Below the pieces are notes generated by a model. The model did not search any database and had not been told where the DNA came from. It was given only the letters and a program-made list of their open reading frames with translations. Of a stretch of DNA of 45,007 bases, positions 22,427 to 37,169 are shown in pieces. How positions within the stretch are numbered: position 1 is the first letter of the stretch; every line of letters starts with the position of its first letter. The position numbers were made by a program, and so were the translations under genes. The DNA comes from a phage: the NCBI GenBank assembly GCA_014469095.1, contig GCA_014469095.1_4330.1; one strand, 5' to 3'.

Positions 22427-22938
22427 GTGGTCAACAGGCCGCGTAATAACGGTATCTCTTTAGGTGTCATCAGTATACCAGTGCTTCGCTGGTTCAGCAT
22501 AGGTGTACCAACATCCGCGGAGAACTCGCCCTTCTCCTGGTTGATGGCCTGCAACTCATACATGACAGGACCGTCAGCCGGATAAGACAGGTCTGTGCTG
22601 ACGTAACGACGGAAGACGAACTTCGGCAACTCGGTGTTACTCATAGGGATTTTATCCATCTCATCGTCAAGTTGATTGAGAATATCCGGTAAAGTAAACG
22701 TAGTCGTCTGGTCCATATCACTGTTGTTAGCCGCCCCCGACGCCTCCATCGGGGTTGGCTCGAACGTGATAATTTCGCCTGTCTCCAGTGTTGCCGTGAG
22801 TTCCTGTAACCCGCGCACAAGATAGTACGTCTTAGACAGCAACGGGTGGCTGATTTGCAACGTGATGTAGTCCATCTCGCCGTCGGGGTTGGAGGCCAGC
22901 TTACGGCGATAGGCGGCTTCTACTGATTCCTGGCTCAT
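22423..22938 (-). CDS. Minor tail protein
   Basis: ORF track; position between distal tail protein and K-like protein. Confidence 0.5.
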   Translation of the reverse strand: MSQESVEAAYRRKLASNPDGEMDYITLQISHPLLSKTYYLVRGLQELTATLETGEIITFEPTPMEASGAANNSDMDQTTTFTLPDILNQLDDEMDKIPMSNTELPKFVFRRYVSTDLSYPADGPVMYELQAINQEKGEFSADVGTPMLNQRSTGILMTPKEIPLLRGLLTT

Positions 22939-22941
22939 AAG

Positions 22942-24339
22942 TTAACTGTCCACATTAAAATCAATACGGGTGATGTACTTGCTTCCCCACGCAGAGTCTG
23001 CTTGAGGGATGGCGGCGTAACCGTCAACAGACGGAACGTTTACCACAGAGCCGTCTGAATATGTAATATCAATGCTTGTTGCACCGTTCATTACTACTTT
23101 TGCCGATGCCGTCGTTCGGGTTACCGGTGACGATTCGGTTACTATTGGCGACGTGGCAAAAGGTGATTTTTCTATTTGCATCGCGCACACTAATATCCCA
23201 CTAACCCCGTCACCGACAAATGAACCAACGGCGGAGTTGTTGTACACCCATGACGCTAAAAGCAGAGAAGATGCGCCGCCCTGGCGTATAGCTACCGTTT
23301 CTGTAAATCGATACCAACCATCGCCAAGCTCTGCTATATCGCTGCCGGGGGTGCCCGCGTAAATAACCCCTGTCGATAAGTTAGCAACACAATCCGCGAT
23401 AAACCCAGCATCATCAGCGGCGCGAAGTCTCGCATAATTATAACCATATGCCTTAGCAACGTAACTGAGAGTGTATACATCACCCTCCGCAAAAGCGGAA
23501 GACACCGATTGATATACGAGATGGCTGTCGTTTGTCTGGTTCGGGACTAGCGAGAACGTACCACCGTTTAGAAATCCGTCAACTGCATCCGACACTGTTG
23601 CTCTAGTTTTAGTCCACGATGCGTCAGATAATTTCGACGATTTAATCAGGATATTACTGGACGCGGATTCCGGCGGAACACGTCCAACAGCAACCCCATC
23701 AATAAACGTAAGAGGCCATTCATTAGCGGCGGACTGCACAAGATTGCCGTTGCGGTTGATGTAGTAAACCTGTGGCCCATCGTAAACAATGCGGCTATCA
23801 AGAGTCGACGCCAGAAGGTTAATCGGCGGATACCCGGCAGGCCATTCATTGCTCCAGATGCGCGGGAACGTAGTTTCGTAGTTCGCGTATATTTTCAGGA
23901 AACTACCCAGACAATCCCCGTAACAACCGTACAAATCTGGAAGATTGTTAATCAGGCACTGGTTCTCTTGGTCCTGGAACGGCGATTTCTCGGCGGTTGC
24001 CGTGAAGGTAATCGTCCAGTTAATGCCGTCTTCGGTGGACTCCGCGATGGTGGATGTAATTGTTACCTGGTAATCCTCAATGCCCATGCCGAAGTCGTGC
24101 GCCATCCAGAAACTTGACGCACCGCCGTCTACTTTTTCGAGGAACGACAGAAACGCCTGTCGCCCCATTGCGGATGTAATCAGGGTTACGCTAACAGGGA
24201 ACACGTCGTAATACGTGTCACGGCCCTGACGCACCCCGCCACCGGCTAAATCTACACTCCAGACGTTGTTACGTCTGGTCATTGAGTAGCCTTTTGATAC
24301 CACCGGCTTAAGGCTACGTGGAAAGTATAAGTCGCTCAT
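22942..24339 (-). CDS. Distal/minor tail protein
   Basis: ORF track; 465 aa immediately after the tape measure gene. Confidence 0.55.
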   Translation of the reverse strand: MSDLYFPRSLKPVVSKGYSMTRRNNVWSVDLAGGGVRQGRDTYYDVFPVSVTLITSAMGRQAFLSFLEKVDGGASSFWMAHDFGMGIEDYQVTITSTIAESTEDGINWTITFTATAEKSPFQDQENQCLINNLPDLYGCYGDCLGSFLKIYANYETTFPRIWSNEWPAGYPPINLLASTLDSRIVYDGPQVYYINRNGNLVQSAANEWPLTFIDGVAVGRVPPESASSNILIKSSKLSDASWTKTRATVSDAVDGFLNGGTFSLVPNQTNDSHLVYQSVSSAFAEGDVYTLSYVAKAYGYNYARLRAADDAGFIADCVANLSTGVIYAGTPGSDIAELGDGWYRFTETVAIRQGGASSLLLASWVYNNSAVGSFVGDGVSGILVCAMQIEKSPFATSPIVTESSPVTRTTASAKVVMNGATSIDITYSDGSVVNVPSVDGYAAIPQADSAWGSKYITRIDFNVDS

Positions 24340-26678
24340 TATTTAAACCCCGGCGCGTTTCTTGTGGCCCTGCGGGCCTTGCTAATCTTACTATTACTGT
24401 TCTGCAAAGAGGCAGCTACCTGCTCCTCGATGATGATACGCAAACGGCCTTCATCATCTTGCTCAGTGGATACGTTGCCGATTTGAGAACTCGTGTTGTT
24501 TACGATAGTAACATTAGACGGTCCGGAAGAAGACCCGTTTTGCCCCATAATTTCTTTCATCTGCTGTGCGGTGCGTACACGTGACGCACCAGCGGGCATG
24601 ATAACTTCTGGTTTACCGCGTTCGGCGATGGTTGAAGCCTGCCCCGCGGATAACTGTCCGCCCTGTTCACGTGCGGACCTGATAGCGGAAATCTGCGCCA
24701 TGCCCGCCCCAACGGCAGCAGCGGCAGCTACAGGAGCCAGGAACGGGCCAACTACAGGGATAGCCGCTGTTGACTTATACGCCTCAATAGCCGCGGTGTA
24801 CGTGGCTATAGTGGCCTGCACGATAGCGAATGCCTTGTACGCGCCAGAAGCCTCGCCCAAAGCCGAACCGATGTTTGAGGCCATGTTACCGAAGGCCGTT
24901 GCCGTTGCGTCGGCACGCTTCGTGGCGTACTGCTCGTTGATGGCATTAAGCGCAGCCTGATACTGCTTCTCACTAATCAAACCCTGCTCGCGGTACTTAT
25001 CTGCTACCGACAGTTTCTGCTGTTCCTGAATGTTGAGAAGCTCAAGCTCAGCGGCGTTCTGACCCATAATCTGAGTCATGAAGTCTTCACCTTTCTGCTG
25101 CTTCTCCTGGGCTTCTTTCCTTTTCTTGTCCAGTTCTTCCTGGCGGGCCTGTTCGGCAGAGAGCATAATCTGCGTCTTGGCGTTTTCGTACTGCTGGTCG
25201 CTAAGAAGCTGATTGCCGTAAAACTCCTGTAGCTTGGTTAACTGCTGTTCCTGGTTGGCTTCTATTTTCTGGAATACATCATCATTGAGATGAATTGACT
25301 GATAGTAGAAATCCTCCGCGGCTTTCTTCTGGCGCTCGAACGCATCCGCTGCTTTCTTAGCGGCTTTTGCACCCGCGCTATCATCTTCAGATCCGCCGCC
25401 GGTACCAGTTACCTTAAATTTACTAAGCCCTTCTTCCTTAGCGGCTTCTTTGTCGATGTCATACGCTGCGCGTTTAAGCGCGACGATATTTTGCAGAGCT
25501 TCTACCTGTTCGCGGAAACTTTTACGCGTAACGTCGGCGACATCGCGCTGGGTATCCAAAGCCATGCCAAGCTGGAAGTTGATATTTTTAGCTACGTCTA
25601 CTGATTCCCCGGGGGTAAAAGCGGCGCGTACAAGACGGCCAGCGTCCTGAGCACCTTTAACCATATCTTCAAAGAATCTCTCCATCGCGGTGAACTCTTC
25701 CGCGATGAAGTCAAGAGCATCGGCGGCGGATTCAGCGATGGTGGTGGCCGTTTGTTCTCCGCTATCGGTAATACTCTTGCTGCTGAAATCCCACAGTTCA
25801 TTAAGCCCGTTGATGGCATCACCAACAAAGCCAAACGCAGCGTCGAATGACATCTCGATAGCGCTTCCTACTTCCGACGCTATGTCGCCCCACATCTGCA
25901 TTTCAGCGGCTAATTCACCGGAAGCAACAGACGCGTTTAATTCCTGGATCAAGTCATTGATATACCTGATAGGTTCCGCAAGTGCGCCAACATCAAGACT
26001 GGTGGCAAGCGTCATTTTTAGCTGCGACCATGAGTCACTGGCGCTCGCGATAGCGCCATTAAGGGTGTTGGCCTGGTCCGCCATGGCACCGGCAAAATTT
26101 ACGTTACCAATATTAAGTAAATACTGCTCAATATCGGCAGCGCTTTTCTTAACTACGGTTGTTGTCCCCTGGAATGTAAACTCTACGTCGTTTTTGTTCT
26201 GCTTGGCTTTGATGCCGAATTCTTTTAGGCGTTCGAACTCAAACGTACTGGCGTCGGCTACCGCCTCAATCATCTGATTAAGGTCCTTGCCCATAGCCGA
26301 TGCGGTATTGCCGTAGGACCGCAACGCCTCCTCGGATGGGGTAAGGCCAAGGGCCACCAGCTTACGGAAGCCTTCCACCGCCTGCTCCAGTCCGTATGGG
26401 GTATCGCGGGCAAAATCTTGCAGGATACTTAGCGCCTGTTTAGCACCTTGGGTACTTCCTGTTAAGGTCTTCAAACTGGCGGACATCTTGTCCAGTTGCC
26501 GCTGTGAGTCAACCAGTTCTTGGGCAGCTTTATACGCGGTAGCCGCTACGATAGAAGCAAGGCCTGCTACGGCGGCCCCCGCTACTTTTGCGGACTTTGA
26601 AAGGTTGTCAAGACGGTCTGATGTGGCTTTCGCGCCTTGCTCTGTTACTTTTACTACTAAACTAGCTACATCAGCCAT
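24339..26678 (-). CDS. Tail tape measure protein
   Basis: ORF track; 779 aa, Ala/Gln/Glu-rich helical sequence, follows the two chaperone genes. Confidence 0.8.
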   Translation of the reverse strand: MADVASLVVKVTEQGAKATSDRLDNLSKSAKVAGAAVAGLASIVAATAYKAAQELVDSQRQLDKMSASLKTLTGSTQGAKQALSILQDFARDTPYGLEQAVEGFRKLVALGLTPSEEALRSYGNTASAMGKDLNQMIEAVADASTFEFERLKEFGIKAKQNKNDVEFTFQGTTTVVKKSAADIEQYLLNIGNVNFAGAMADQANTLNGAIASASDSWSQLKMTLATSLDVGALAEPIRYINDLIQELNASVASGELAAEMQMWGDIASEVGSAIEMSFDAAFGFVGDAINGLNELWDFSSKSITDSGEQTATTIAESAADALDFIAEEFTAMERFFEDMVKGAQDAGRLVRAAFTPGESVDVAKNINFQLGMALDTQRDVADVTRKSFREQVEALQNIVALKRAAYDIDKEAAKEEGLSKFKVTGTGGGSEDDSAGAKAAKKAADAFERQKKAAEDFYYQSIHLNDDVFQKIEANQEQQLTKLQEFYGNQLLSDQQYENAKTQIMLSAEQARQEELDKKRKEAQEKQQKGEDFMTQIMGQNAAELELLNIQEQQKLSVADKYREQGLISEKQYQAALNAINEQYATKRADATATAFGNMASNIGSALGEASGAYKAFAIVQATIATYTAAIEAYKSTAAIPVVGPFLAPVAAAAAVGAGMAQISAIRSAREQGGQLSAGQASTIAERGKPEVIMPAGASRVRTAQQMKEIMGQNGSSSGPSNVTIVNNTSSQIGNVSTEQDDEGRLRIIIEEQVAASLQNSNSKISKARRATRNAPGFK

Positions 26679-27030
26679 CGTTTCTACCCTCGAAAATAGC
26701 GTCTAAGCTCATGATGATGTCGGATTCGAACATCCCTATATTCTGGCCTGAAACGGTGCTGTACGCCACTAAATCTGACCATCGTAATTGCTCGCGCGGG
26801 TACATCTTGATGCCGTCGTCGTCCACTCGGCGGGTGAATTTAATTTCCCTGTACTTCTCAAATGTGGTTAGTAGCTCAGGGGGGCATTCCGGCCCAGCGG
26901 CCTGCGTTGCATCCGGCGCGTCTTGCATAACCCCCATAGCAATTAGCGCGGCTTTATGCCCATCGGCGATACTGTCAAATTCCCGCCGTTTGTGGCGGGT
27001 TATGAAGTTCCAACGGGCGAACTGGAGCAA
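26671..27030 (-). CDS. Tail assembly chaperone, distal segment (possible frameshift partner)
   Basis: ORF track; lies in the -1 frame relative to 27036..27452 and overlaps the tape measure start. Confidence 0.5.
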   Translation of the reverse strand: MLQFARWNFITRHKRREFDSIADGHKAALIAMGVMQDAPDATQAAGPECPPELLTTFEKYREIKFTRRVDDDGIKMYPREQLRWSDLVAYSTVSGQNIGMFESDIIMSLDAIFEGRNDG

Positions 27031-27035
27031 CGCGT

Positions 27036-27452
27036 CTACTTTTCCTGTAGCTGGTGCAGTTGTTCGTTATGAAACACAACAACAAGTTCCGCGAGTCGTT
27101 TATATTGCGTCAGGAGTGTGTTCAGATTCTCTTTATTGAATTCGTCGTCAAGGCTCCACCCGTTAACCAATTCAATCGCTAACTGACGGTTAAGGTCCGT
27201 CGCCGCGTCTTCCATCTTCAGGTTGTATTCAGAGAAATCTTTCATCTCTTCGCACTTATCACGAAGCGGTTTTAATTTCCCTAATACTGCCCGGTATGCA
27301 AGGGTGAACGCGCGCATAGCCTTAACGGCAACGTCCGCCTCAGGAGAAACAACATTAAGCCATTCCCCGGAATCAGTACCGTCTTTTAGCGGTATCGGCA
27401 TACGTGCGCCCTTTTCGGCTTCCGCTTCGTAATAAAAATCAGAAAGTTTCAT
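27036..27452 (-). CDS. Tail assembly chaperone (lambda G-like)
   Basis: ORF track; acidic 138-aa protein between the major tail region and the tape measure. Confidence 0.55.
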   Translation of the reverse strand: MKLSDFYYEAEAEKGARMPIPLKDGTDSGEWLNVVSPEADVAVKAMRAFTLAYRAVLGKLKPLRDKCEEMKDFSEYNLKMEDAATDLNRQLAIELVNGWSLDDEFNKENLNTLLTQYKRLAELVVVFHNEQLHQLQEK

Positions 27453-27559
27453 TCTTTAATCCTTTGGTTAAGAGGTTACTGGTTAAAGGAAATGCGCCAG
27501 ACGGGAACCACCCGCTTTTCGTGTGCGACACTAGGCGCAAAATTATTCTAGCACACTAC

Positions 27560-27588
27560 TTGCACACCCCAATATAATAGCGTACTAT
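27560..27588 (+). promoter_or_regulatory. Sigma70-like promoter, type A (TTGCAC-N17-TACTAT) driving the rightward cassette
   Basis: TTGCAC-ACCCCAATATAATAGCG-TACTAT-TCAC. Confidence 0.6.
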
Positions 27589-27630
27589 TCACTTACACCA
27601 ACGATGTTATCTCAAATCAGGAGTTATGTT

Positions 27631-27822
27631 ATGACCGGTATCACTATGTTCTTCTTAATTATTTTTGTAGCCGTTTATTTTATCCCGTTTTTGGTGGCAC
27701 ATATGCGTAACCATAAAGCAAAGCTGGCGATATTCATGGCTAACTTATTTCTCGGGTGGATTCTGTTGCCGTGGGTATTCATTTTAATCTGGGCTTGCAA
27801 CTCGAACGTGAAAGAGAAGTAG
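27631..27822 (+). CDS. Superinfection-immunity-like small membrane protein (T4 Imm-like)
   Basis: ORF track 27604..27822; ATG at 27631 with SD CAGGAG; YFIPFLVAHMRNHKAKLAIFMANLFLGWILLPWVFILIWA matches the recalled Imm-family signature YF-P...R-H-N...NL-LGW...W..LIWA. Confidence 0.6.
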   Translation: MTGITMFFLIIFVAVYFIPFLVAHMRNHKAKLAIFMANLFLGWILLPWVFILIWACNSNVKEK

Positions 27823-27860
27823 GCTACTATAAGACAAATCCTAAACACGAGGAAGTAAGC

Positions 27861-28991
27861 ATGGCCCAGAAGAAAATAACCGACGAGCAATTACAGGAAG
27901 AATTGAACGCCGGGATGAAGAATATCGATATCGCCCGTAAATACGGAATCTCAGACCGCGTTATCCGAATACGTAAAGCTAAGCTGGCTAAGAAAGGCGT
28001 AGGCCACGGGCGGGACGTAAGCCACCTTGTACCAGACGGCTACAAGATTAAAGGCACGTCGTCTCTGGTGGACGAGTTCGGTAACACTAAGTTGCAGTGG
28101 GTTAAGACAGACACCGATGCCGAACGTCAGGTTGAGTTGATGAAAGCCGTAGTCGAAGGCATGAAGTCGGAGATTACTCCCGTTCCGCCAGTTAAGGCCG
28201 CCCGGACTAAACGTGACGACAAGCTGCTTAACCTGTACACCGTGTCTGATTTCCATCTCGGTATGTTAGCCTGGGCTGACGAGAGCGGCGACGACTGGGA
28301 TATGAAAATCGCGGAGGACTTATTCTCTCGTTGGTTTGATGCTGCGTTTCAGAAAGCACCGGATGCAGGTACGGGGGTTATTAATCTTCTTGGCGACTTA
28401 GCTCACTTCGATAGTCTTGACGCCGTTACACCGGCGAGTGGTCATGTCCTTGACGCCGACACGCGTTACCAGAAACTTGTCCGCTACATGATTCGCATGG
28501 TCCGCCGTGTTGTTGATATGGCTCTGGTTAAGCATAAAACTGTTCGCTTGCTTATAGTTCAGGGGAACCACGACGAATCCGGGATGATTTGGTTGGCTGA
28601 GATGTTCAGTACGCTGTACGACAATGAGCCGCGCGTGTTCGTCGATACGTCGCCGGATGTTTACAAGATGGTGCAACACGGCAAAACGACGCTGTTCTTC
28701 CATCACGGGCATAAAGCACGATTCGACGCTATCGAACCGGTTATGATTGCCAAGTTCCGTAAAGCGTTCGGCGAGAGTGTTTACAGCTACGCCCACGTAG
28801 GCCATCTGCACCACCAGAAGATTGTAGAAAGCCGTAACATGATTGTTGAGCAACACCGCACCTTAGCGGCTAAAGACGCCTACGCCTCTCGCGGCGGATG
28901 GATGTCGGGCCGCAGTGCAAATGTAATTACTTATAGCGCCGAATATGGCGAGGTCGCACGTTTAACTATTTCACCGGAGATGCTGGGATGA
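27861..28991 (+). CDS. HTH-fused calcineurin-like metallophosphoesterase (Mre11/SbcD-type motifs)
   Basis: ORF track 27756..28991; ATG at 27861 with SD GAGGAAG; N-terminal HTH-like NIDIARKYGISDRVIRIRKAKL; phosphoesterase motifs VSDFHLG, LLGDLAHFD, LIVQGNHDESG, FHHGH. Confidence 0.65.
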   Translation: MAQKKITDEQLQEELNAGMKNIDIARKYGISDRVIRIRKAKLAKKGVGHGRDVSHLVPDGYKIKGTSSLVDEFGNTKLQWVKTDTDAERQVELMKAVVEGMKSEITPVPPVKAARTKRDDKLLNLYTVSDFHLGMLAWADESGDDWDMKIAEDLFSRWFDAAFQKAPDAGTGVINLLGDLAHFDSLDAVTPASGHVLDADTRYQKLVRYMIRMVRRVVDMALVKHKTVRLLIVQGNHDESGMIWLAEMFSTLYDNEPRVFVDTSPDVYKMVQHGKTTLFFHHGHKARFDAIEPVMIAKFRKAFGESVYSYAHVGHLHHQKIVESRNMIVEQHRTLAAKDAYASRGGWMSGRSANVITYSAEYGEVARLTISPEMLG

Positions 28992-29476
28992 AAGATATTG
29001 TAATTTTCGATTTAGACGGGACATTGGCCGACGGTACCCATCGCTTACACCTGTTACCAAAAGATAACTACGGAGAAACGTGGGCGTGGAAGCCATTTAA
29101 CATGGCCTGCAAAGATGACGCTCCGATATACGACAATATCCATTTGTGTAGCGTACTGTGGCATTCCGGACTTACTATAATTATCCTTACCGGGCGAAGT
29201 GATGACGCTGAGGAGGAGACTCGCGAATGGTTACGAGAGAATAACGTTAGGTTTGACACGCTAATCATGCGCAGCAAACACGACAACAGAAAAGACATCG
29301 TAATTAAAGAAGAGGTGTTGCGTGCTTTCGGACTGGAAAGAATCTTGTGTGCGTTCGACGACTCTCCAGCGGTAATAAAGCATTTCCGTGACCTCGGCAT
29401 AACCGCACACGCAGTTACCGAATACGACTGTAACGGGAACTCTACACACTTAAAACCACACGGGAGCGATAAATAA
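28988..29476 (+). CDS. HAD-superfamily phosphatase resembling the T4 polynucleotide kinase 3-prime phosphatase domain
   Basis: ORF track; IVIFDLDGTLADG (DxDGT), IILTGRSDD and RKDIVIKEE, recalled as close to the T4 Pnk C-terminal domain (VIFDVDGTLA, VVVSGRESG, RKDDVVKEE). Confidence 0.65.
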   Translation: MKDIVIFDLDGTLADGTHRLHLLPKDNYGETWAWKPFNMACKDDAPIYDNIHLCSVLWHSGLTIIILTGRSDDAEEETREWLRENNVRFDTLIMRSKHDNRKDIVIKEEVLRAFGLERILCAFDDSPAVIKHFRDLGITAHAVTEYDCNGNSTHLKPHGSDK

Positions 29477-30030
29477 TGGCTAAGGTAATTATTCTTAATG
29501 GCCCTGCGGGTTGCGGGAAAGACACGCTTGCTATGGCGCTGGTAGAAATGGGCTTTGCGAAAGGAACTACCAGTTTCAAGAATCCAATGTTCAATATTGC
29601 TTTGGCAGCGTTAGGCCAGGATGCTTACCACGAATTTCTCGACGGCTACGACGACCGGGCGCGGAAAGAAAAACCCGAGGGTTTTCTTAATGGGTTGTCC
29701 CGCCGCCGGTTAATGATTGCCATTTCTGAGCAATTCATTAAACCGGTATTCGGCGATGATTATTTCGGTAAGTATCTTGCTGAAAACTTGCCTGACGGCG
29801 ACGAAGTTTTTGTAGTGTCCGATGGTGGATTCGCCAGTGAAGTTGCCCCTATCGTCGCCGCGGGGCATGACGTGCGAATCGTCCGCCTCCATCGTGACGG
29901 CTATACGTTCATCTGCGATAGCCGTGGCTATCTGTACGATGTTAGTGGTGTAAAAGATTACGACACCTACATCATACCGGGTGACGTTAAATCGAACGTT
30001 ATAGACATTGCTTTAAAATTAGGTTTGTAA
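29476..30030 (+). CDS. P-loop kinase, dNMP-kinase-like (T4 gene 1 type); polynucleotide kinase is the alternative
   Basis: ORF track; P-loop GPAGCGKDT (the GKDT variant recalled for phage dNMP kinases), SRRRLMIAI; start overlaps the phosphatase stop by 1 nt. Confidence 0.55.
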   Translation: MAKVIILNGPAGCGKDTLAMALVEMGFAKGTTSFKNPMFNIALAALGQDAYHEFLDGYDDRARKEKPEGFLNGLSRRRLMIAISEQFIKPVFGDDYFGKYLAENLPDGDEVFVVSDGGFASEVAPIVAAGHDVRIVRLHRDGYTFICDSRGYLYDVSGVKDYDTYIIPGDVKSNVIDIALKLGL

Positions 30031-30034
30031 GAAA

Positions 30035-30061
30035 AAGGCCCCGAAAGGGGCCTTAGTTTTA
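30035..30061. terminator. Bidirectional intrinsic terminator (AAGGCCCC-N4-GGGGCCTT family)
   Basis: AAGGCCCC-GAAA-GGGGCCTT then AGTTTTA. Confidence 0.75.
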
Positions 30062-31231
30062 TGCGTAGGTGATACGTTGAATTACGATAGACGACTGGTA
30101 CTGATTGCCGGTAGCCTGGCCTTCAATGGACTGAGTGATTGACTCAGGCCCACCAATCTCAGGTGTAACCGCCGTAAGCTCTGCACGTTTCAAACTGAAA
30201 GACATAGCCCCGTTTACCCCTGCCAGAATAGAGTTAATCTCTACATGCTGCTCGTTGATAAACTTCTGAATCATCGCCATGTCGTACAGCTTGCCAGAGA
30301 TAGAGAATGTGTTAGCTGCGCGTCCACGTTCGACGAACGCCACGCTACTGTTACCGAGTTCGAACTGCGCGGAAGCTCCGTTGTCGTTGGTGATGGTGAG
30401 AGTATCGCAACGCAACGGCGTGGAGCCATCGAACACCGACACATCTACCGACGAGAACGGCTCATCGGTGAACGTAACCTGAGAGAAATCAGAGCCAGAC
30501 GGCGGCGCGGTAAGAATCTCCTGACTCAGGCCGATGAACGGGAAGCTGCCGGTGACCATGGCGTTAACCGCCTGCTCTACGGTAAAGCCAGAGATTTCCA
30601 CACCTTTGGTCAGCATGTACGCGTCCGGGTTACCACACTGGCCCTTGAACCACGTCAGGATGGAGAACGTCTTACACGCGTTACCGGTTTCCAGCTTGTC
30701 GCCAGTTTTTGCGTCAGTGGTTACTGTCTCTACTGTCAGCGTGTGCTGAATACCTGCGCCCGTAACTACCAGAGCGGAAACCGCGGTCACGATAAACGGT
30801 TTTGCGTTGTCGCCGGTTAAGTCGGTGAACGCAATAAGGTCGCCAACTTCTACACCGTCAGTAATGAAGCTACCGGCAGCGCGGGTGAATGTTTTACCTG
30901 CTGGGGCGACCGTAATTTCGGCGCCAGTAATCTCTACCCCAGCTTGCCACGTAGAAGTCATCGCTCCCGCAAGGAAATCATCCTGGCTACGAGAGCTAAG
31001 TTCGATGGCGTACTCCCCGCTAACCTGTTTGTTACCGGTTCGGATGGATGTAGTTTCACGGCTGCCGTCCAGTTCGTTGGAAGTCAGTGCATCGCGGGTT
31101 ACAGCGGGAACGCCGCCCGTGTTACGCAACGGCGACCATACCGGGTTAGTCGGTGTTACGCCAAAGGTATTTTCCGCCACATAGAATTGCGCGGTATTCG
31201 CGCCCTTAAAAGGAGTTGTAGCCATATTCAC
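30059..31231 (-). CDS. Major tail (tube) protein
   Basis: ORF track; 390 aa, Thr/Gly/Ser-rich, positioned between the tail completion genes and the chaperones. Confidence 0.6.
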   Translation of the reverse strand: MNMATTPFKGANTAQFYVAENTFGVTPTNPVWSPLRNTGGVPAVTRDALTSNELDGSRETTSIRTGNKQVSGEYAIELSSRSQDDFLAGAMTSTWQAGVEITGAEITVAPAGKTFTRAAGSFITDGVEVGDLIAFTDLTGDNAKPFIVTAVSALVVTGAGIQHTLTVETVTTDAKTGDKLETGNACKTFSILTWFKGQCGNPDAYMLTKGVEISGFTVEQAVNAMVTGSFPFIGLSQEILTAPPSGSDFSQVTFTDEPFSSVDVSVFDGSTPLRCDTLTITNDNGASAQFELGNSSVAFVERGRAANTFSISGKLYDMAMIQKFINEQHVEINSILAGVNGAMSFSLKRAELTAVTPEIGGPESITQSIEGQATGNQYQSSIVIQRITYA

Positions 31232-31644
31232 AGCCTCTTGGTGAATGCAATAAAGTTAATTGACAATGGTCGTTTGGCCCATCCGTTTTCTACAATCAGC
31301 GGCCCCAGGCTAACCGATTGAACCTCGGCGCAGATGTCGTTACGCGAAAATGCCTTACCTGATTTAAACGCCGTGTTAAGTAAGTCTGCCATTTTATTGA
31401 TTGGCGCGCTACCTTTCACCGATGCGTAGTTAATGTCTATCTGATAGACACCGGCGCGTTGTTCCGTGAAGAATAAGTCAGCCTGCTCGGTATCCGCCAG
31501 CAACATGTAACTTGCCAGATACGGCGTATCTGTTGACGTCGGCGCGTCGATGTTTTCAAGCGCTACCTTGATGCCGTTGGTGGTTCCGAAGGCTACCAGC
31601 GGCACATCAAACGCTTTTGTTAAGTCCTCAAAGTAGCCCATCAT
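31228..31644 (-). CDS. Tail completion / tail terminator-like protein
   Basis: ORF track; position only. Confidence 0.45.
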   Translation of the reverse strand: MMGYFEDLTKAFDVPLVAFGTTNGIKVALENIDAPTSTDTPYLASYMLLADTEQADLFFTEQRAGVYQIDINYASVKGSAPINKMADLLNTAFKSGKAFSRNDICAEVQSVSLGPLIVENGWAKRPLSINFIAFTKRL

Positions 31645-32036
31645 CTCACCTTGCTAGCTTCTTCGTTAATGAGTTGCTGGAAGCGGGACACGTTAGTCCT
31701 GACGAATCCTTGCGGGGCCTGTTGCGACCAGCCATACTCCAGCCGTTGTGCATACGGCAGGTTATTTGTCAGCGTGAACTCATGCCAGTCGGTGGCTTTC
31801 AGCACGAAACTTGTAGCGTTTCCGGTTGCTGTGTTTCCTGATTTATCCGTAGCATCCGTAATCCCGGAAGCAGGAGTACCGCCAGATGCCATCCAGTTCA
31901 TGCGAAACCGACCAGTATCTACCGGACTCGCCTTTATAATAGCGGAAAACAGCTTGATAGACACCTGACGCATCACCTTCTCAGGGTTCTTCTTCGCCTT
32001 TTCCACGAACTTAGAGACGTCCAGCGCGAAACTCAT
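31641..32036 (-). CDS. Neck protein, HK97 gp10-like
   Basis: ORF track; SPVDTGRFRMNW resembles the recalled gp10-family motif. Confidence 0.5.
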   Translation of the reverse strand: MSFALDVSKFVEKAKKNPEKVMRQVSIKLFSAIIKASPVDTGRFRMNWMASGGTPASGITDATDKSGNTATGNATSFVLKATDWHEFTLTNNLPYAQRLEYGWSQQAPQGFVRTNVSRFQQLINEEASKVR

Positions 32037-32392
32037 TTTCTCACCTGAATAAAGTAGGCCACAACATCATCGTTAACCACCTTCTTCTCAATGGCTACGA
32101 CGGACCATTGCTCGCCGCCGAATTGCACTTTGTCTTCCATCTTAGGAACGACGCTGTAATCGGCTTTAACAATCATGTCACCAGCCTGAATCGTCGTACC
32201 GTTCACCAGACCCGCATTAACAGGAACCGGAACGGCCTTCAACGGCAACACTTCGTCCGCAGACCAGACGTACTCACCGAGAACTTCATCCCACACTTTC
32301 GAGCCAGCGCGAATCAGAGATACCGTGCTACCGAATTTGGTTAACAGGCGTGTACCTACGCCTTGCATACGTTTACTGAAAGCTGTGCTCAT
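32033..32392 (-). CDS. Head closure / head-tail joining protein
   Basis: ORF track 32033..32446; ATG at 32392 overlaps the upstream stop; position only. Confidence 0.45.
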   Translation of the reverse strand: MSTAFSKRMQGVGTRLLTKFGSTVSLIRAGSKVWDEVLGEYVWSADEVLPLKAVPVPVNAGLVNGTTIQAGDMIVKADYSVVPKMEDKVQFGGEQWSVVAIEKKVVNDDVVAYFIQVRK

Positions 32393-33006
32393 CAGGCGGC
32401 CTCCAGTCTCGAAATAACCAGTAGCGCGGACGGTGCCGTGCCCCATGCAGTTACAGTAGCCACCTGCGGGTATACGCCTCCGAAGTTAGTCCCGGCGCTA
32501 TCTCGCATAATCTGAACGGCGAATGTTTGCCCGGCGGTTGGGTTAATCACTACACGGGATTCAATCGGGATTGTGGTGTCCGCGCTTACCAGTTTCGTGG
32601 CGGCTGGCGAGCCGTACTGAGCGCCGTTTACTAAAATACGTGATAGCAGGATTGACGTTCCGCTGGCCCCGGTGCGTCCCGCTTGTAACTTGATGCGAAC
32701 GGCGTAGTTACCCGCGGTGTTGAATGTAACCAGCCCCGCAGCATTAATCATTACCGGGTCAGATGCACTACCCTGAGCAGAGCCGAACGATACCCGCAAC
32801 GCCGTATCTACTGCGGTAGGCGCTTGCGCTACTGTCGACGCAGCGCGGAGAACTTCAACCTCTTTAACACCCGGAGTGGCGTAAATAGGTGAGTCAGCCA
32901 TCTGGGTTAATACCCCGCGCAACTTCGCAGGCGTAATAAGTCCGGTCGTGTTGTCCGGTAGCTCGGAACCGATTAGCGTGAATATCTCTGATTTAGTCTT
33001 CGCCAT
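32392..33006 (-). CDS. Structural protein, 204 aa
   Basis: ORF track; Ala/Thr/Gly-rich; position only. Confidence 0.45.
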   Translation of the reverse strand: MAKTKSEIFTLIGSELPDNTTGLITPAKLRGVLTQMADSPIYATPGVKEVEVLRAASTVAQAPTAVDTALRVSFGSAQGSASDPVMINAAGLVTFNTAGNYAVRIKLQAGRTGASGTSILLSRILVNGAQYGSPAATKLVSADTTIPIESRVVINPTAGQTFAVQIMRDSAGTNFGGVYPQVATVTAWGTAPSALLVISRLEAA

Positions 33007-33008
33007 TT

Positions 33009-33521
33009 TTAACCCCGGTACACGTTAAACGAGAAACCATTGTTAAGACCGCCACACAATAACGGGCGTAAAGCGTCGTCAGCAGCGGTAATCGCGGTCG
33101 TAGCGCCACTGTTGCCATTGTTGAAGTAGGTCACTGTTACCGCACCCTCGACACGCTCAGTCTGCACGGCGCGACCGTCTGAGTTAGCCCGGACTTCGGT
33201 GCCCTCGCCATATGTAGCGGCAGCGATTACCTGCGCAAGAATCACCTGTTTCGGAATGGCGTTGTTGACCACCGGGAACCCGTTTAACGTAACGCCGGTG
33301 CGGGGGTATGCAAGAGACTGTTCGGCGGATACTCGACGACCGCACATCTGCGGTTCTGCAAGCCCTACATAAGTAGCACCGTTGCGTAAGGCCACCTCTG
33401 CTGCGGTATCGTCTTCCGGCAGCTCAAGGCCATAATTAGCCGCTAACGCGCGGGCGTCAGCCAGACTAATGTAACTGTCGGCATTTGGGACGATCACCCC
33501 AGTTTCCACGATTAGCGGCAT
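33009..33521 (-). CDS. Head-tail connector (adaptor) protein, gp6-like
   Basis: ORF track; N-terminus YISLADARALAANYGLELPEDD is typical of head-tail adaptor proteins. Confidence 0.55.
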   Translation of the reverse strand: MPLIVETGVIVPNADSYISLADARALAANYGLELPEDDTAAEVALRNGATYVGLAEPQMCGRRVSAEQSLAYPRTGVTLNGFPVVNNAIPKQVILAQVIAAATYGEGTEVRANSDGRAVQTERVEGAVTVTYFNNGNSGATTAITAADDALRPLLCGGLNNGFSFNVYRG

Positions 33522-33524
33522 AAA

Positions 33525-33704
33525 TTATTCCTCTGACTTACGGCGACGACGCTTAGTACCACCGCCGTTGTTGTGCGCTTCTTCATTGTCTGGTTGGGTT
33601 GCAACCAGTTCATCCGCTTCTACCACACCGCGAACAGGCATCACCTGTCCGTCAACGATATCAACGTGGGTATACTTTTCGCGGATTACGTAATTATCTG
33701 CCAT
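33525..33704 (-). CDS. Small ORF, 59 aa, basic C-terminus
   Basis: Absent from the track; ATG preceded by AAGGAAAGG just downstream of a GC hairpin. Confidence 0.35.
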   Translation of the reverse strand: MADNYVIREKYTHVDIVDGQVMPVRGVVEADELVATQPDNEEAHNNGGGTKRRRRKSEE

Positions 33705-33740
33705 GACCTTTCCTTATTACGGCCCCGAAGGGCCGTTGTA

Positions 33741-34091
33741 TTAAGACACAGTTGCTACGGTGCTGCTGGAGATAATATTACCATACACATCGTGAACAAC
33801 CACTTTATACGTGCCTGAATCTGCGGTAGTAGTGGACGCCTTCGCATAGGTAGCTGCGGTGGCCCCGTCGATGGCGTTGTTATCTTTGTACCACTGGTAG
33901 GAATACGGCTCCAGACCGCCAGTTACCTCTACGGTAAGAGTCATAGTCTGCCCCACCGTAACTGCGGTGGTAGCCGCAAGCGCGGCAGAAAAAGACGCTG
34001 GCGAGATATTCGCCATATCGATTTCAACCTGACCATCGGCAGGAGAATCATCAGAAACACCGGTAATACGACGTTTGATTACATCAACCAT
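33741..34091 (-). CDS. Ig-like domain protein (head decoration / fibre-like)
   Basis: ORF track; YQWYKDN...ADSGTYKVVV is an Ig-like motif common in phage decoration proteins. Confidence 0.55.
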   Translation of the reverse strand: MVDVIKRRITGVSDDSPADGQVEIDMANISPASFSAALAATTAVTVGQTMTLTVEVTGGLEPYSYQWYKDNNAIDGATAATYAKASTTTADSGTYKVVVHDVYGNIISSSTVATVS

Positions 34092-34103
34092 TTTTAAGCT
34101 CCT

Positions 34104-34403
34104 TTAGCTTACGGTTCCTGCGTTTTTAAGCGCAGTCAACAGATTTGCTACGGTAGTGCGCAGCGCGGTAACATCGGTTCGGAGTTTGTTGTACTCCGCT
34201 ACAAGGGCGTCGAACTCTTCCTTAGTCGGTGCCGCGGCGGACTGCGCTCCTTTACCAGCGGTAACCGCCGCAGGTGCGGCTACAGTAGCTGACTTTTTAA
34301 CCCCACCAACTACGCTGGTAGTAGCAGGCGTGACTGGGATATCAAAGTCGCCGAAATCGACATTCTGAAGGCTGCGCGGCAAGCCTTTTCCGGTCTTGAC
34401 CAT
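34104..34403 (-). CDS. Hypothetical structural protein, 99 aa
   Basis: ORF track; directly downstream of the major capsid gene. Confidence 0.5.
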   Translation of the reverse strand: MVKTGKGLPRSLQNVDFGDFDIPVTPATTSVVGGVKKSATVAAPAAVTAGKGAQSAAAPTKEEFDALVAEYNKLRTDVTALRTTVANLLTALKNAGTVS

Positions 34404-34427
34404 AATTTACCTCTTAGTAAATGAAAA

Positions 34428-34445
34428 GAGGGACCGAAGTCCCTC
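34428..34445 (-). terminator. Hairpin attenuator/terminator after the major capsid gene
   Basis: GAGGGAC-CGAA-GTCCCTC followed on the minus strand by TTTTCATTT. Confidence 0.5.
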
Positions 34446-34462
34446 TCGATTATAGCTTAACC

Positions 34463-35512
34463 TTAAGCACCGACACCAGTTACCAGGAAGGCAATCGGTA
34501 CGTGCTTACGGTCAACAACACGGCTCCAGTTAGAGGCGTTCGCCAGGTCCTGCCAGGAAGCAGAACGTGCGACAGTCTCGGTGCCGTTACCGGTGATTAC
34601 TGCGCTGGTGAAGCTGTAACCAAACGGATGTAGCAACCAGGTCTTACGGGTCCACAGGGTTTCAACGCCGCCGCCGTTGCCGCGGGACGCTTCGCGCTCG
34701 TATTCCAGCGGGTTGGACGGAGAACCTTCACCGTAACCGATAGCGCCGTTGCCGAAGATGATGGAGATGAACTTACGGGTCGGGCCAGTGCCGACTACGG
34801 TCATGCTGTCGTCAACAATCACGCGGTAGCCCTGGTAGGTGGCGAACATGGTGTTGTTGTCCGCGTCACGGATGAAGTCGATAAGCTGCTGCTTACGTGC
34901 CTGCGCATAAACGAAGCTATGCATCGCGATAGCCCCCAGCACTTCACCGCCGTTGCCCATCAGAGCATCGCCCATAGTCTGGGTAGCGTCGATGAACGCG
35001 CCCACATCGAAGCCCAGAGTAGCAGACACGTCGATAACCATGTCGTTCTGCTCGTGGTAAGCATCGGTAGCAGCTACGTTGTCGTTGTACAGACCGAGCG
35101 CGGTAGCAATCAGACGGCGTTGTGCCTGGCGCTGCCAGAAGTTATCCAGACGGGACGCTACGGATTGCAGCGGGTTCTGGCGGGTCAGTTCGACAGTCAA
35201 ATCCGCCTGACCGAAACCTTCGTTCAGGTATGCAACGCGGGCCATCATCTCGCCGGTCTGCACGTTACGCGGGGTGGCGATGTCCTGGTATACGTCGTTC
35301 GAGTAGTTCGGCTCGATAGAGGTATCAATCGCTTTCCAGAAAGGAATATTAGCGACGTTGGACGGGCCGCGGGCAATCTCGGCGGCGTATGGGGTCGGGG
35401 TCAGAATACCAGACTGGAAGAACGCGGTTTTTTCTACCGGGTCCTCGGTCATATAAGACGCCAGGACCGGGATGTTGCCAGTTACGATATCGCCGATAGT
35501 GGTAATTGCCAT
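34463..35512 (-). CDS. Major capsid protein
   Basis: ORF track; 349 aa, immediately downstream of the scaffold gene, followed by a terminator hairpin. Confidence 0.8.
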   Translation of the reverse strand: MAITTIGDIVTGNIPVLASYMTEDPVEKTAFFQSGILTPTPYAAEIARGPSNVANIPFWKAIDTSIEPNYSNDVYQDIATPRNVQTGEMMARVAYLNEGFGQADLTVELTRQNPLQSVASRLDNFWQRQAQRRLIATALGLYNDNVAATDAYHEQNDMVIDVSATLGFDVGAFIDATQTMGDALMGNGGEVLGAIAMHSFVYAQARKQQLIDFIRDADNNTMFATYQGYRVIVDDSMTVVGTGPTRKFISIIFGNGAIGYGEGSPSNPLEYEREASRGNGGGVETLWTRKTWLLHPFGYSFTSAVITGNGTETVARSASWQDLANASNWSRVVDRKHVPIAFLVTGVGA

Positions 35513-35514
35513 TA

Positions 35515-36216
35515 TTATTTCCTCAGGGCTTTAAGTTGCCGTTCAAATTCGGCAGGGTTCGATTTATACAGGGCTAAACGCTCTGCTTCACTCATGTCTT
35601 TAAACGCTGGTGCGGCCCCGCCGCCTTTGCTACCGGAAGCCCCGCCGCCGGAAGCTGCATTTGCTTTGATCAAATGCGAAAACGCCTTGTGTTCGCGCAG
35701 GTATTTGCGGAACTGTTCCGGGTCAGTCGTGATTACGTTACCGTCTGCACCAACAAACTTAGTAACCACATCATCGCCTTCGAACTCAGTCTTAACGAAC
35801 GGCGCAAGAATGTCCACTGCTTCCGGGGTAATAAAGTCACCCGCGAAAGAGCCTAGCACCGCTTTACGTTCGCTGCCGAGGATACGCTCTGCCATTCTGG
35901 AGATGCGACCGTCTTTCTCGGCTAACACCGGGTCATACTGGCTACGAATCGTCTTTTCGAACTCGTCCATCTTACCAGCGGCTTTTAACGCCTCCTGGTG
36001 CGCGCGCTGCCGTTCTTCTTCGGCCTCTTTTGCTTTGCGAGCGGCTTCTTTCTTCTCCGCCAACAATGCTTCCTGATTAGCCTTAAGCCCAGCAACTTCT
36101 TTCTCAATCAGCGCCTGAACTTCTTCAGCGGTGAACATTTTCGGCGCGTCACCGCCACCAGCTTTATCTTCTGCCCCAGCTTCTTCCTGGAACGGATAAC
36201 GTAAAAAACGATTCAT
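35515..36216 (-). CDS. Scaffolding protein
   Basis: ORF track 35515..36270; ATG at 36216; Ala/Glu/Lys-rich coiled coil directly upstream of the capsid gene. Confidence 0.65.
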   Translation of the reverse strand: MNRFLRYPFQEEAGAEDKAGGGDAPKMFTAEEVQALIEKEVAGLKANQEALLAEKKEAARKAKEAEEERQRAHQEALKAAGKMDEFEKTIRSQYDPVLAEKDGRISRMAERILGSERKAVLGSFAGDFITPEAVDILAPFVKTEFEGDDVVTKFVGADGNVITTDPEQFRKYLREHKAFSHLIKANAASGGGASGSKGGGAAPAFKDMSEAERLALYKSNPAEFERQLKALRK

Positions 36217-36277
36217 AGTCAGTATGTCCCCTGGACGTTGGAACCCGGGCCACCCGGATTTACATGTCAAGAATAAA

Positions 36278-36305
36278 TTATTCCAACATGCAAGGCAACT
36301 ATTCC
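36278..36305. repeat. Repeat block TTATTCCAACAT plus CAACTATTC, copy 1
   Basis: Both short motifs recur at 37045-37072, flanking the spanin genes. Confidence 0.5.
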
Positions 36306-36562
36306 AGAATATTCCTCACGTAATCCTGCAACATAAACACTTTCAGCCTCAGTTGCCGTACACATTCAGCGTTCTGAACGTCGATAGCTAAATCTTCGTC
36401 GGCATCGCTACTCGGCGGTGCCAGCTTGCACGGCGGCTGCATCATCGTCGTATCCGGGGATGGAGTTGGCGTTTGCGACGGCGCGGGACTTGAGCTGCAC
36501 GCGCTCAGGGTCAAAAGCGCACACACTGCGACCAGGCGTTTTAATGTACTTAACGACTTCAC
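36299..36562 (-). CDS. Rz1: o-spanin (Rz1-like outer-membrane lipoprotein), overlapping the Rz gene in the +1 frame
   Basis: ORF track; GTG start with SD GAGGTGA; signal peptide ending in lipobox LSAC; Pro-rich mature region; starts inside the Rz gene and extends past it. Confidence 0.65.
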   Translation of the reverse strand: MKSLSTLKRLVAVCALLTLSACSSSPAPSQTPTPSPDTTMMQPPCKLAPPSSDADEDLAIDVQNAECVRQLRLKVFMLQDYVRNILE

Positions 36563-36794
36563 GGGTGATCACCTCTGATTTCGTCTTGCCTTCGTTGTCA
36601 GCGGCTGCGGCCTTTGATTCGTCCTGCTGCTGCCGTTGTGTTTTCTTAGTCATCTCGGCCTGTGCTTTCTGCTGTTGCTGAGAAACGAGATTCGCCCGGC
36701 CTTCGTTCCAGCCGATGCGGTACTGGTAGATGCCGTGTGTGTAAGCCAGGATGATGAAACATGCTCCCGCTACGACAGTTGCTTTAAGATTCAT
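36408..36794 (-). CDS. Rz: i-spanin (Rz-like inner-membrane protein)
   Basis: ORF track; N-terminal TM helix then a Gln/Lys/Ala-rich helical periplasmic region; SD AAGGAG; carries the embedded lipoprotein gene. Confidence 0.65.
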   Translation of the reverse strand: MNLKATVVAGACFIILAYTHGIYQYRIGWNEGRANLVSQQQQKAQAEMTKKTQRQQQDESKAAAADNEGKTKSEVITREVVKYIKTPGRSVCAFDPERVQLKSRAVANANSIPGYDDDAAAVQAGTAE

Positions 36795-37044
36795 GTTTCT
36801 CCTTTCTCGATAAGTAAAGCCCCGCCTTAAAGCGGGGCGCTAGTCCTTATCATTTAAACATAGAAACGGCGTAATCTCAGTAAACCAGTTACTTTTTACA
36901 CAAGCAATAGAGTATGGCCCGTCCGAACGCGTCAGCGTAACTACACTCAGGACTTACGTCCCGCTCCGTTACCTGCCCGCGCCGCGGTCGCTTGTTCATA
37001 CTTCACAAGCTCAGGTGGAGCTTATCATATTTTTAGTGAAAAGT

Positions 37045-37072
37045 CAACTATTCGAATAGTTTATTCCAACAT
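37045..37072. repeat. Perfect 16-bp palindrome AACTATTCGAATAGTT followed by TTATTCCAACAT, copy 2
   Basis: The palindrome carries the CTATT/AATAG half-sites of the promoter core in everted order; lies upstream of the spanin genes and of the 37114 promoter. Confidence 0.5.
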
Positions 37073-37113: not shown

Positions 37114-37142
37114 TTGCACACCCCAATATAATAGGGTACTAT
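37114..37142 (+). promoter_or_regulatory. Sigma70-like promoter, type A (TTGCAC-N17-TACTAT)
   Basis: TTGCAC-ACCCCAATATAATAGGG-TACTAT-TCAG, then SD GCAGGAGGTG. Confidence 0.65.
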
Positions 37143-37169
37143 TCAGTTAACTTAAGCAGGAGGTGAAAA

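Follow-up and report, generated by a model that had tools for sequence, protein, structure and literature searches.

Why should one perfect palindrome recur, almost letter for letter, at places in a phage genome where transcription changes direction? The question is raised by the hairpin at positions 30035-30061 of a 45,007-nt stretch of phage DNA (contig GCA_014469095.1_4330.1 of assembly GCA_014469095.1; hereafter the window), which is an essentially complete genome of a Kagunavirus (Guernseyvirinae) coliphage. A preliminary description of the locus had proposed that a family of such hairpins insulates gene cassettes, that each copy terminates transcription on both strands, and that the cassettes share a mechanism of acquisition or maintenance. 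We conclude, with a probability of roughly 0.7, that the hairpins are intrinsic terminators, four of them bidirectional, which together with a shared early promoter delimit portable, moron-like cassettes.

Six hairpins at gene ends

Three stretches of the window, 17481-17500, 30035-30054 and 39304-39323, match the motif AAGGCCCC-N4-GGGGCCTT exactly; a fourth, 11663-11682, does so with two mismatches. No set of four matches was reached in 100 shuffles, and with 0.01 expected against four observed, a chance origin of the family was rejected. A census of perfect hairpins added a copy at 37379-37399, with the same 8-bp stem and a 5-nt loop (GTAAT), and a variant at 7821-7839. The six elements are as follows.

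17481-17507, both strands: hairpin AAGGCCCC-GTTT-GGGGCCTT followed by AGTTTTA; the last plus-strand gene of the replication module stops at 17474-17476, the minus-strand tailspike gene at 17505-17507
30035-30061, both strands: hairpin AAGGCCCC-GAAA-GGGGCCTT followed by AGTTTTA, in a 28-nt gap; a plus-strand cassette gene stops at 30028-30030, a minus-strand tail gene at 30059-30061
37379-37399, both strands: hairpin AAGGCCCC-GTAAT-GGGGCCTT, between a plus-strand gene (37170-37373) and a minus-strand gene (37403-37861)
39304-39330, both strands: hairpin AAGGCCCC-TTAT-GGGGCCTT followed by AATTTTA; a plus-strand cassette gene stops at 39296-39298, the minus-strand portal gene at 39346-39348
7821-7839, minus strand: variant AAGGGGC-TTTAA-GCCCCTT, convergent, between a plus-strand gene (7501-7815) and a minus-strand helix-turn-helix (HTH) gene (7829-8044), the hairpin containing the stop codon of the latter
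11663-11686, plus strand: variant AAGGCCC-TTCATT-GGGCCTT followed by TTTTAC, between the co-directional plus-strand genes 11017-11643 and 11703-13874 (DNA polymerase)

The reported recurrence thus lies far above chance, but the four-base loop is not constant, the 37379 copy having five. Likewise, the AGTTTTA or AATTTTA tail ascribed to the family follows 17481 and 30035 (AGTTTTA) and 39304 (AATTTTA); at 37379 it is inverted, with GAAAACT before the hairpin and TTATCAG after it. By self-BLAST, likeness among the copies is limited to about 27-29 nt, that is, to the hairpin and its A-rich and T-rich flanks. A longer repeat or mobile element around the hairpins was rejected, as similarity ends at about 29 nt.

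All of the hairpins begin 0-22 nt from a stop codon. The four main copies (17481, 30035, 37379 and 39304) lie in gaps of 28-47 nt between convergent genes, and their perfect 8-bp stems, with six G-C pairs and loops of 4-5 nt, have a predicted folding energy of -14.9 to -15.8 kcal/mol on either strand (about -12 kcal/mol for the variants at 7821 and 11663). Counting the terminal UU of the stem, 6-7 of the first 8-9 nt downstream are U on both strands at 17481, 30035 and 39304; at 30035 the tails read UUUUUCUU on the minus strand and UUAGUUUUA on the plus strand. Tails at 37379 are shorter, with five U in the first six nucleotides on the plus strand and six in nine on the minus strand, the terminal UU again included. 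Only these four copies combine an upstream A-tract that mirrors the downstream T-tract with a position between convergent genes. The 7821 hairpin is convergent yet one-sided, its T-tract (CTTTTTAT) being on the minus strand only, and that at 11663 is neither convergent nor two-sided, with a T-tract on the plus strand only.

We counted 7821 as convergent because of a previously unannotated minus-strand gene, 7829-8044, encoding a 71-aa HTH protein of the Cro/XRE type (Pfam HTH_3, E = 4e-13; 48% identity to ORF43 of Salmonella phage SETP3); the closest GenBank record does not have it and carries a 31-aa plus-strand open reading frame (ORF) there instead. The placement of every hairpin at a switch of transcription direction, as first described, therefore holds for five of the six (17481, 30035, 37379, 39304 and 7821) and fails at 11663, which separates two plus-strand genes. 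Similarly, service to both strands by one element is plausible for the four main copies, but not for the two with one-sided tails. Hairpins between other co-directional genes of the window have unrelated stems (for instance, those at 34427, after the major capsid gene, and at 36819), and none of the hairpins matched an Rfam family at gathering thresholds.

A stable G+C-rich stem-loop (stem of about 5-14 bp, loop of 3-8 nt), a U-rich tract directly 3' of it and a position just after a stop codon are the features of an intrinsic (Rho-independent) terminator, and by these features all six elements are probably of that kind. The four main copies are probably bidirectional, 7821 is probably a one-way terminator for the HTH gene, and 11663 is probably a plus-strand terminator or attenuator away from any strand switch. 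Because the stem is a perfect palindrome whose AA/TT ends run into A-rich and T-rich flanks, a transcript of either strand would form the same hairpin (about -15 kcal/mol) followed by a U-rich tail, and a single element could stop RNA polymerase arriving from both sides. Early-type plus-strand transcription would in this manner be kept out of the late structural genes, and late transcription out of the early units.

That terminators exist here is not new, and prior annotation joins the sequence features in supporting the terminator assignment of the preliminary description. The GenBank record of SETP3 (EF177456, a Jerseyvirus with about 67% nucleotide identity to the window in the adjoining tail gene) annotates rho-independent terminators at orthologous junctions: feature 12706-12729 is the orthologue of 30035, 24448-24484 that of 17481, and 34786-34810, at the ORF43/ORF44 junction, that of 7821. 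The AAGGCCCC/GGGGCCTT stem occurs in SETP3 at four orthologous sites and one extra site. Terminators predicted with ARNold are also listed in Kagunavirus genome papers (PMC7203180, PMC9825357). In more distant relatives (tail-protein identity of 73% or less), other fully paired stems occupy the same place, namely AAAGGGGC/GCCCCTTT, AAGGGCC/GGCCCTT and AAAGCCCCT/AGGGGCTTT. As these relatives change the sequence of the stem yet keep its pairing, what long-range comparison shows to be conserved is the structure. Stems do not vary within Kagunavirus and Jerseyvirus, so that those genera yield no covariation.

The hairpins might instead act mainly after transcription, as 3' stem-loops that guard mRNAs from 3'-5' exonucleases or mark processing sites, a role proposed for repetitive extragenic palindromic (REP) elements. 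Stable G+C-rich stems directly past stop codons on both strands would suit such a role, as would the interrupted plus-strand U-tracts, which are sub-optimal for termination, and the continuation of late genes past three of the hairpins, which is easier to reconcile with read-through. However, the succession of A-tract, stem and T-tract is the canonical architecture of an intrinsic terminator, and the U-rich tail is kept across relatives even where the neighbouring genes have changed. We therefore consider a chiefly post-transcriptional function improbable, while noting that the two roles are not exclusive.

A shared promoter-like repeat and the cassettes behind it

Self-BLAST also identified a 32-nt repeat, TTGCACACCCCAATATAATAGGGTACTATTCA, at 27560, 37114 and 38953 on the plus strand and at 4152-4183 on the minus strand (four matches with up to three mismatches, against 0 expected). 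It has the layout of a promoter, with a -35 element TTGCAC, a 17-nt spacer and a -10 element TACTAT, and it includes the palindrome AATAG-N4-CTATT.

27560-27591, plus strand: promoter-like repeat TTGCACACCCCAATATAATAGCGTACTATTCA, the 5' boundary of cassette 1
37114-37145, plus strand: exact reference copy of the repeat, with a Shine-Dalgarno sequence and an ATG (37170) after it, the 5' boundary of cassette 2
38953-38984, plus strand: copy of the repeat with three mismatches, the 5' boundary of cassette 3
4152-4183, minus strand: fourth copy, in the early region
ending at 3030-3059, minus strand: looser fifth copy, in the early region
3030, 4154, 8119, 10943, 14490, 27576, 37130 and 38969, across the window: AATAG-N4-CTATT palindromes, 14 nt each

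The fourth copy, lying in the early region, places the cassette promoters within an early promoter family of the phage itself. Each of the three plus-strand copies stands at the head of a unit that runs through one or more genes to a hairpin (27560 to 30035, 37114 to 37379, and 38953 to 39304), over 260-2470 nt from promoter to hairpin. All three units are on the plus strand and antisense within the late region, such that their hairpins would be the 3' ends of small plus-strand units inserted antisense into the late operon. The G+C content is 40-44% in the small cassettes and 48% in the large one, compared with 52-55% in the flanking structural genes.

Cassette 1, 27631-30030, plus strand: superinfection immunity protein, metallophosphoesterase (weak Pfam match), PNKP-type HAD phosphatase and P-loop protein (weak Pfam match)
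Cassette 2, 37170-37373, plus strand: 67-aa ORFan
Cassette 3, probable start at 39014 (MAKYSN..., 94 aa), plus strand: ORFan with a Shine-Dalgarno sequence

We infer that the shared promoter fires towards the cassette. Its -35 element and leader (CTTACACCAAC / AAACGAGAGG) align with three strong TTGACA-17-TATAGT promoters of the replication block (8109, 10933 and 14480), and in SETP3 the homologous motifs at 37848 and 38961 precede plus-strand early genes transcribed in the same direction. The SETP3 record, further, marks promoters at the homologous sites upstream of its inverted cassettes, one of which has a perfect TATAAT in the cassette direction. The opposite orientation, towards the late genes, was considered, as the core is palindromic and the consensus weak, and is disfavoured.

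The palindrome within the repeat occurs eight times in the window (0.01 expected), always in promoter-like contexts of two spacing classes, and is probably an operator for a phage regulator; the HTH protein encoded at 7829-8044 is a candidate to bind it. The PHIRE motif tgAATAGTa-ccTATTat-T reported in one of the Kagunavirus genome papers (PMC7203180, PMC9825357) matches the promoter core. The palindrome also matches the published PHIRE "phage promoter" consensus of phage fBC-Eco01, which was attributed there to a phage RNA polymerase.

The annotation of the closest relative, Escherichia phage vB_EcoS-22664BS2 (96% identity over 20 kb), guided the gene map into which the cassettes are set.

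about 5177-17476, plus strand: replication block
17505-27452, minus strand: tail block (tailspike, tape measure, chaperone)
27560-30030, plus strand: cassette 1 block
30059-36999, minus strand: head/tail block
37170-37373, plus strand: small gene (cassette 2)
37403-38906, minus strand: two genes, one of them 37403-37861
ending at 39298, plus strand: cassette 3 gene
39346 onward, minus strand: portal, terminase and lysis genes

Several observations concern the cassette genes and leaders themselves. A 129-aa plus-strand ORF annotated in the closest relative, 38909-39298, includes the cassette promoter at 38953-38984, and the seeming conservation of its first 25-47 residues in other phages is that of promoter and leader DNA; the cassette 3 gene probably starts at 39014 rather than at 38909. 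In cassette 1, the metallophosphoesterase has an N-terminal HTH-like segment, and the PNKP-type HAD phosphatase and P-loop protein look like a split polynucleotide kinase-phosphatase; by these predicted functions, the gene set may be an RNA-end-repair or counter-defence module.

On the late strand, cassette promoters are closely followed by two structured, conserved leaders. The first, at 27477-27541, matches Rfam int-alpA (minus strand; 36.6 bits against a gathering threshold of 35.8, E = 5e-4) and lies in the leader of the tail assembly chaperone gene, just downstream of the cassette 1 promoter. The second, a conserved unit of about 190 nt that resembles an RNA (about 36815-37011, minus strand), is found in at least 23 Kagunavirus and Jerseyvirus loci, with promoter-like elements TTGACT (37047-37042) and TAAGCT (37024-37019) and a strong terminator hairpin at 36819-36838. 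RNAalifold predicts 62 pairs for this unit, eight of them with compensatory double changes; its single-sequence z-score is only -1.85, it has no Rfam match, and it overlaps a 36-aa ORF annotated as a hypothetical protein. We regard it as a candidate phage non-coding RNA. A perfect 16-nt palindrome, AACTATTCGAATAGTT, at 37046-37061 carries the AATAG/CTATT half-sites in inverted order and overlaps the -35 element of its promoter-like sequence.

Constant hairpins and exchanged genes in related phages

The loci compared with the window numbered 64 for homologues of the tail gene, 58 for those of the portal gene and nine for those of the last replication gene. Across about 120 related loci the stem is constant while the neighbouring genes are replaced. 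Among the 40 tail-gene loci whose protein identity is 79% or higher, 35 keep the exact stem; at least six unrelated cassette sequences abut it, and BLAST homology in many relatives begins at window positions 30027-30035. No variation in the stem is seen at the 17481 site (loci L245-L253), where tailspike C-termini of at least five unrelated kinds begin directly behind GGGGCCTTAGTTTTA. Because these unrelated ends begin directly after the hairpin, the 17481 terminator also marks a host-range swap junction; in the tailspike gene (17505-19490, minus strand) it is the receptor-binding C-terminal ends that are swapped there.

The portal site exists in two states. In the first, a 79-nt spacer holds the hairpin AGCCCC-GAAA-GGGGCT and no cassette; in the second, a AAGGCCCC-type hairpin is followed by a reversed gene that varies by genome, the promoter core, and about 50 conserved nucleotides leading to the next late gene, the cassettes measuring 250-1420 nt against the 79 nt of the empty spacer. 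The second site (window 37379) behaves alike: relatives have either this hairpin with an inverted cassette or AAGCCCC-GAAA-GGGGCTT without one, and the spacer is about 340 nt as opposed to 508-1113 nt. Two loci without a cassette at the portal site, L189 and L192 (29 to 75 nt past the portal end; orthologous to window 38906-39345), have the palindrome TATAGTATGCTATT directly after AGCCCC-GAAA-GGGGCT, an arrangement that looks like an empty terminator-plus-operator slot. L192 also has a hairpin of chimeric appearance, AGGCCCC-GAAA-GGGGCTT, about 1590-1620 nt past its portal end, at the position orthologous to 37379. On the left, arm and flank resemble those of cassette-bearing genomes, and on the right those of cassette-free ones, as could result from a crossover within the hairpin or from a simple point mutation.

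Whole units also change place. The cassette that follows the portal gene in L211 and that which follows the fibritin-like gene in L188 and L200 share 92% identity across 590 nt that run exactly from hairpin to promoter; past the promoter's TTGCA, the sequence is specific to the site. Loci L236 and L191 provide a second example of one cassette at different sites, and L223 and L240 have a homologue of the window's metallophosphoesterase gene at the second site. The Rha-family cassette of SETP3, about 780 nt long, is flanked by hairpins at 12704 and 13485 where L125 and L126 have a single hairpin, and a further promoter-like sequence lies within 85 nt of the inner hairpin, giving a fused terminator-promoter spacer (SETP3 13400-13510). 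The alternative presence and absence of cassettes, the same cassette at different sites and the two-hairpin insertion in SETP3 mark these units as portable. The common mechanism that had been suggested for the cassettes is thereby supported and extended to include the shared promoter, the replacement of genes and the movement of one cassette between hairpin sites. Across Guernseyvirinae, the promoter core and the hairpin remain the same, and genes between or beside them are exchanged, shifted to a different hairpin site, or stacked. Recombination within the short shared hairpin and promoter sequences would be the likeliest route of exchange, as has been proposed for the promoter early stem-loop (PeSL) elements considered below.

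The loops of the hairpins differ from the stems in their behavior. Between pairs of loci with conserved flanks, loops diverge about four times as fast as the flanks (0.25 vs 0.061 differences per nucleotide), and some are exact reverse complements of each other within the same flanks: AAAC/GTTT in L248 and L249 (orthologues of 17481), and TTTC/GAAA at the tail site (L123-L184) and on the two sides of the SETP3 Rha cassette (L122, 12704 and 13485); GGAA/TTCC is a further such pair. These flips suggest minute inversions within a perfect palindrome, as would be expected from template switching or inversion. Loop flips to the reverse complement are likewise seen as minute inversions in hairpin loops of chloroplast non-coding DNA and in quasipalindrome template-switch mutagenesis, an analogy of mechanism from a different biological system. 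Strict concerted evolution of the copies within a genome was rejected, being contradicted by a clade whose second site carries AACGCCCC and whose tail site carries AAGGCCCC.

A bolder proposal is that the 20-nt palindromic terminator and the promoter core of about 33 nt serve as joint recombination linkers, both for the early-gene slots of the late operon and for the tailspike exchange junction. Shuffling like that of PeSLs would then operate outside the T4-like myoviruses, with the loop inversions as its footprint at the DNA level. We hold this proposal tentatively, at somewhat less than even odds.

The opposite possibility is that the hairpins are ordinary terminators with no part in exchange, their GGCCCC/GGGGCC stem with its AA/TT caps having arisen convergently, and junctions falling at them because recombinants with broken genes are lost. 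The occurrence of the stem outside this phage group speaks for it. The exact stem, with its 16 specified bases, is found in at least 120 unrelated IMG/VR viral contigs, nearly always as a single copy with A/T flanks and a loop of GAAA, TTTC, TTCG or CGAA. When each bacterial species was represented by a single genome, at least 120 bacterial contigs, from many phyla, carried it as well. Among the matches listed, the hairpin lies just after an ORF end in 101 of 104 viral and 90 of 104 bacterial cases, about 40% of these being between convergent ORF ends. A stem specific to this group was accordingly rejected, and the sequence is best described as a generic, repeatedly evolved 3'-end hairpin; since it is so widespread, stem identity alone is no proof of the common descent of the copies, which limits the shared mechanism as first argued. 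The use of other stems at the same site by distant relatives, and the incomplete homogenization of copies within a genome, also fit ordinary terminators. What this explanation does not predict is the transfer of whole units, hairpin to promoter, between sites at 92% identity with site-specific sequence immediately outside, or an insertion in SETP3 bounded by two hairpin copies. Nor does it account readily for a stem that is invariant at 35 of 40 loci while its loops diverge four times faster than the flanks, or for the association of the AAGGCCCC form with inverted cassettes when cassette-free genomes have AGCCCC or AAGCCCC hairpins. We consider it unlikely that the hairpins are ordinary terminators and nothing more.

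Still further from our interpretation, the palindromes might be DNA-level sites, forming cruciforms or recognized by a protein in recombination, cleavage, replication or packaging, with their resemblance to terminators incidental. Loops that flip to their exact reverse complement in otherwise identical contexts do record a DNA-level event, and within Kagunavirus and Jerseyvirus the sequence of the stem is conserved beyond its pairing. However, such flips are expected from template switching in any perfect palindrome, we found no candidate sequence-specific recombinase adjoining the sites, the hairpin is widespread at ORF ends in unrelated genomes, and distant relatives alter its sequence while keeping the hairpin. 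We regard a purely DNA-level role as very improbable.

Several points weigh against the interpretation of the hairpins and repeats as terminators and promoters of portable cassettes. With respect to termination, the plus-strand U-tracts of the main copies are interrupted (UUAGUUUUA), and the literature that we searched contains no transcript 3'-end data or transcriptome for any Guernseyvirinae phage. Efficient minus-strand termination would require that the head and tail genes past each cassette have late promoters of their own or antitermination, and a search downstream of the cassettes identified no convincing minus-strand late promoter; three strong hairpins within the late operon, with good U-tracts on the late strand, may therefore be either leaky or antiterminated, or transcription may restart after them. 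With respect to the promoter, the cassette copy matches the sigma70 consensus at only seven of 12 positions and is missed by a standard scan. With respect to exchange, only a few bases separate the hairpins from the gene boundaries, such that selection for viable recombinants would by itself place junctions there; because the hairpins fill nearly the whole intergenic gap, exchange through hairpin homology and mere coincidence with gene ends are inseparable in the present data. Convergent evolution can explain part of the stem identity, and in a clade with 72-74% portal identity the second site has AACGCCCC/GGGGCGTT while the tail site has AAGGCCCC, indicating that copies are not strictly homogenised. 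The anatomy of the units, the conservation of their hairpins, the mosaic junctions and the relocation of whole cassettes are direct observations; from them we infer that transcription terminates at the hairpins, how efficiently it would do so from either side, and that exchange proceeds by recombination within the hairpin or promoter.

Relation to known systems and significance

Taken singly, the hairpins show no essential difference from the intrinsic terminators annotated in SETP3 (EF177456) or predicted by ARNold (PMC7203180, PMC9825357). Their remarkable feature is that the very same 8-bp stem is present at four or five sites of one 45-kb genome. The bidirectional terminators mapped in E. 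coli by SEnd-seq (Ju et al. 2019, summarised in bioRxiv 10.1101/2022.10.23.513370) are, by their authors' account, mostly unlike intrinsic terminators, whereas the hairpins of the window do resemble them.

Morons are autonomous units, with a promoter and terminator of their own, found between genes that are adjacent in relatives (Juhala/Hendrix; reviewed in PMC3594210). The cassettes share with them a terminator of their own, presence or absence between adjacent genes, deviant base composition and accessory cargo (superinfection immunity). The TTGCAC-17-TACTAT repeat before each cassette may supply a promoter, but its match to the consensus is weak (7/12). Unlike morons, the cassettes draw on early promoters of the phage's own family and not on foreign signals, run antisense to the operon around them, and all have the same promoter and terminator sequences. 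The expression of morons from a repressed prophage, to the benefit of the lysogen, may not apply to these virulent siphoviruses, since no genes related to lysogeny are described in the published genomes of close relatives (PMC7203180, PMC9825357).

The PeSL cassettes of T4-like phages, in which a repeated sigma70-like early promoter and a stem-loop with G/C runs flank variable ORFans (Arbiol et al. 2010, PMC2839356; Comeau et al. 2014, PMC4122927), offer a second comparison. Here too, insertions, deletions and replacements between close relatives are bounded by repeats, and the units carry their own transcription signals. The PeSL, however, is a fused promoter and stem-loop motif of about 100 bp, whereas in the window the two stand at opposite ends of the cassette and are fused only between the stacked cassettes of SETP3. 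T4-like phages have about 50 copies in hyperplastic regions, as opposed to 3-5 per genome here (four or five promoters, four hairpins and two variants in the 45 kb of the window), and our cassettes, in siphoviruses (Guernseyvirinae), are inverted relative to the late genes. As the fused motif and the high copy number fail, the cassettes work like PeSLs but are not PeSLs, and the definition of a moron fits them better.

The hairpins are also reminiscent of REP elements and bacterial interspersed mosaic elements (BIMEs) in being short palindromes that recur in 3' untranslated gaps, many of them where genes converge. REP and BIME sequences are imperfect palindromes of about 35 nt with their own consensus, are clustered, and are linked to RAYT transposases. 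In contrast to these, or to elements resembling miniature inverted-repeat transposable elements, the hairpin is a perfect palindrome of 20 nt with similarity of no more than about 29 nt, and no REP-like consensus was present in the hairpin sequences read.

Although terminators are routine, the portable promoter-gene-terminator architecture adds interest to them as a component of modular phage evolution, and our literature search found no prior description of these cassettes. The architecture raises a concrete question, namely how late transcription passes three strong hairpins in the structural operon or restarts after them. In Kagunavirus and Jerseyvirus phages, which are widely isolated for therapy, the junctions at which accessory genes and tailspike ends change are few and fixed, all of them bearing the hairpin and those of the cassettes the same promoter as well. 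From these junctions one can predict the sites of future cargo, for example genes for superinfection exclusion or perhaps counter-defence, and, as insertion sites with ready transcription signals, the junctions may suit engineering. More generally, they extend the idea of a mobile regulatory cassette from the T4-like phages to a siphovirus lineage.

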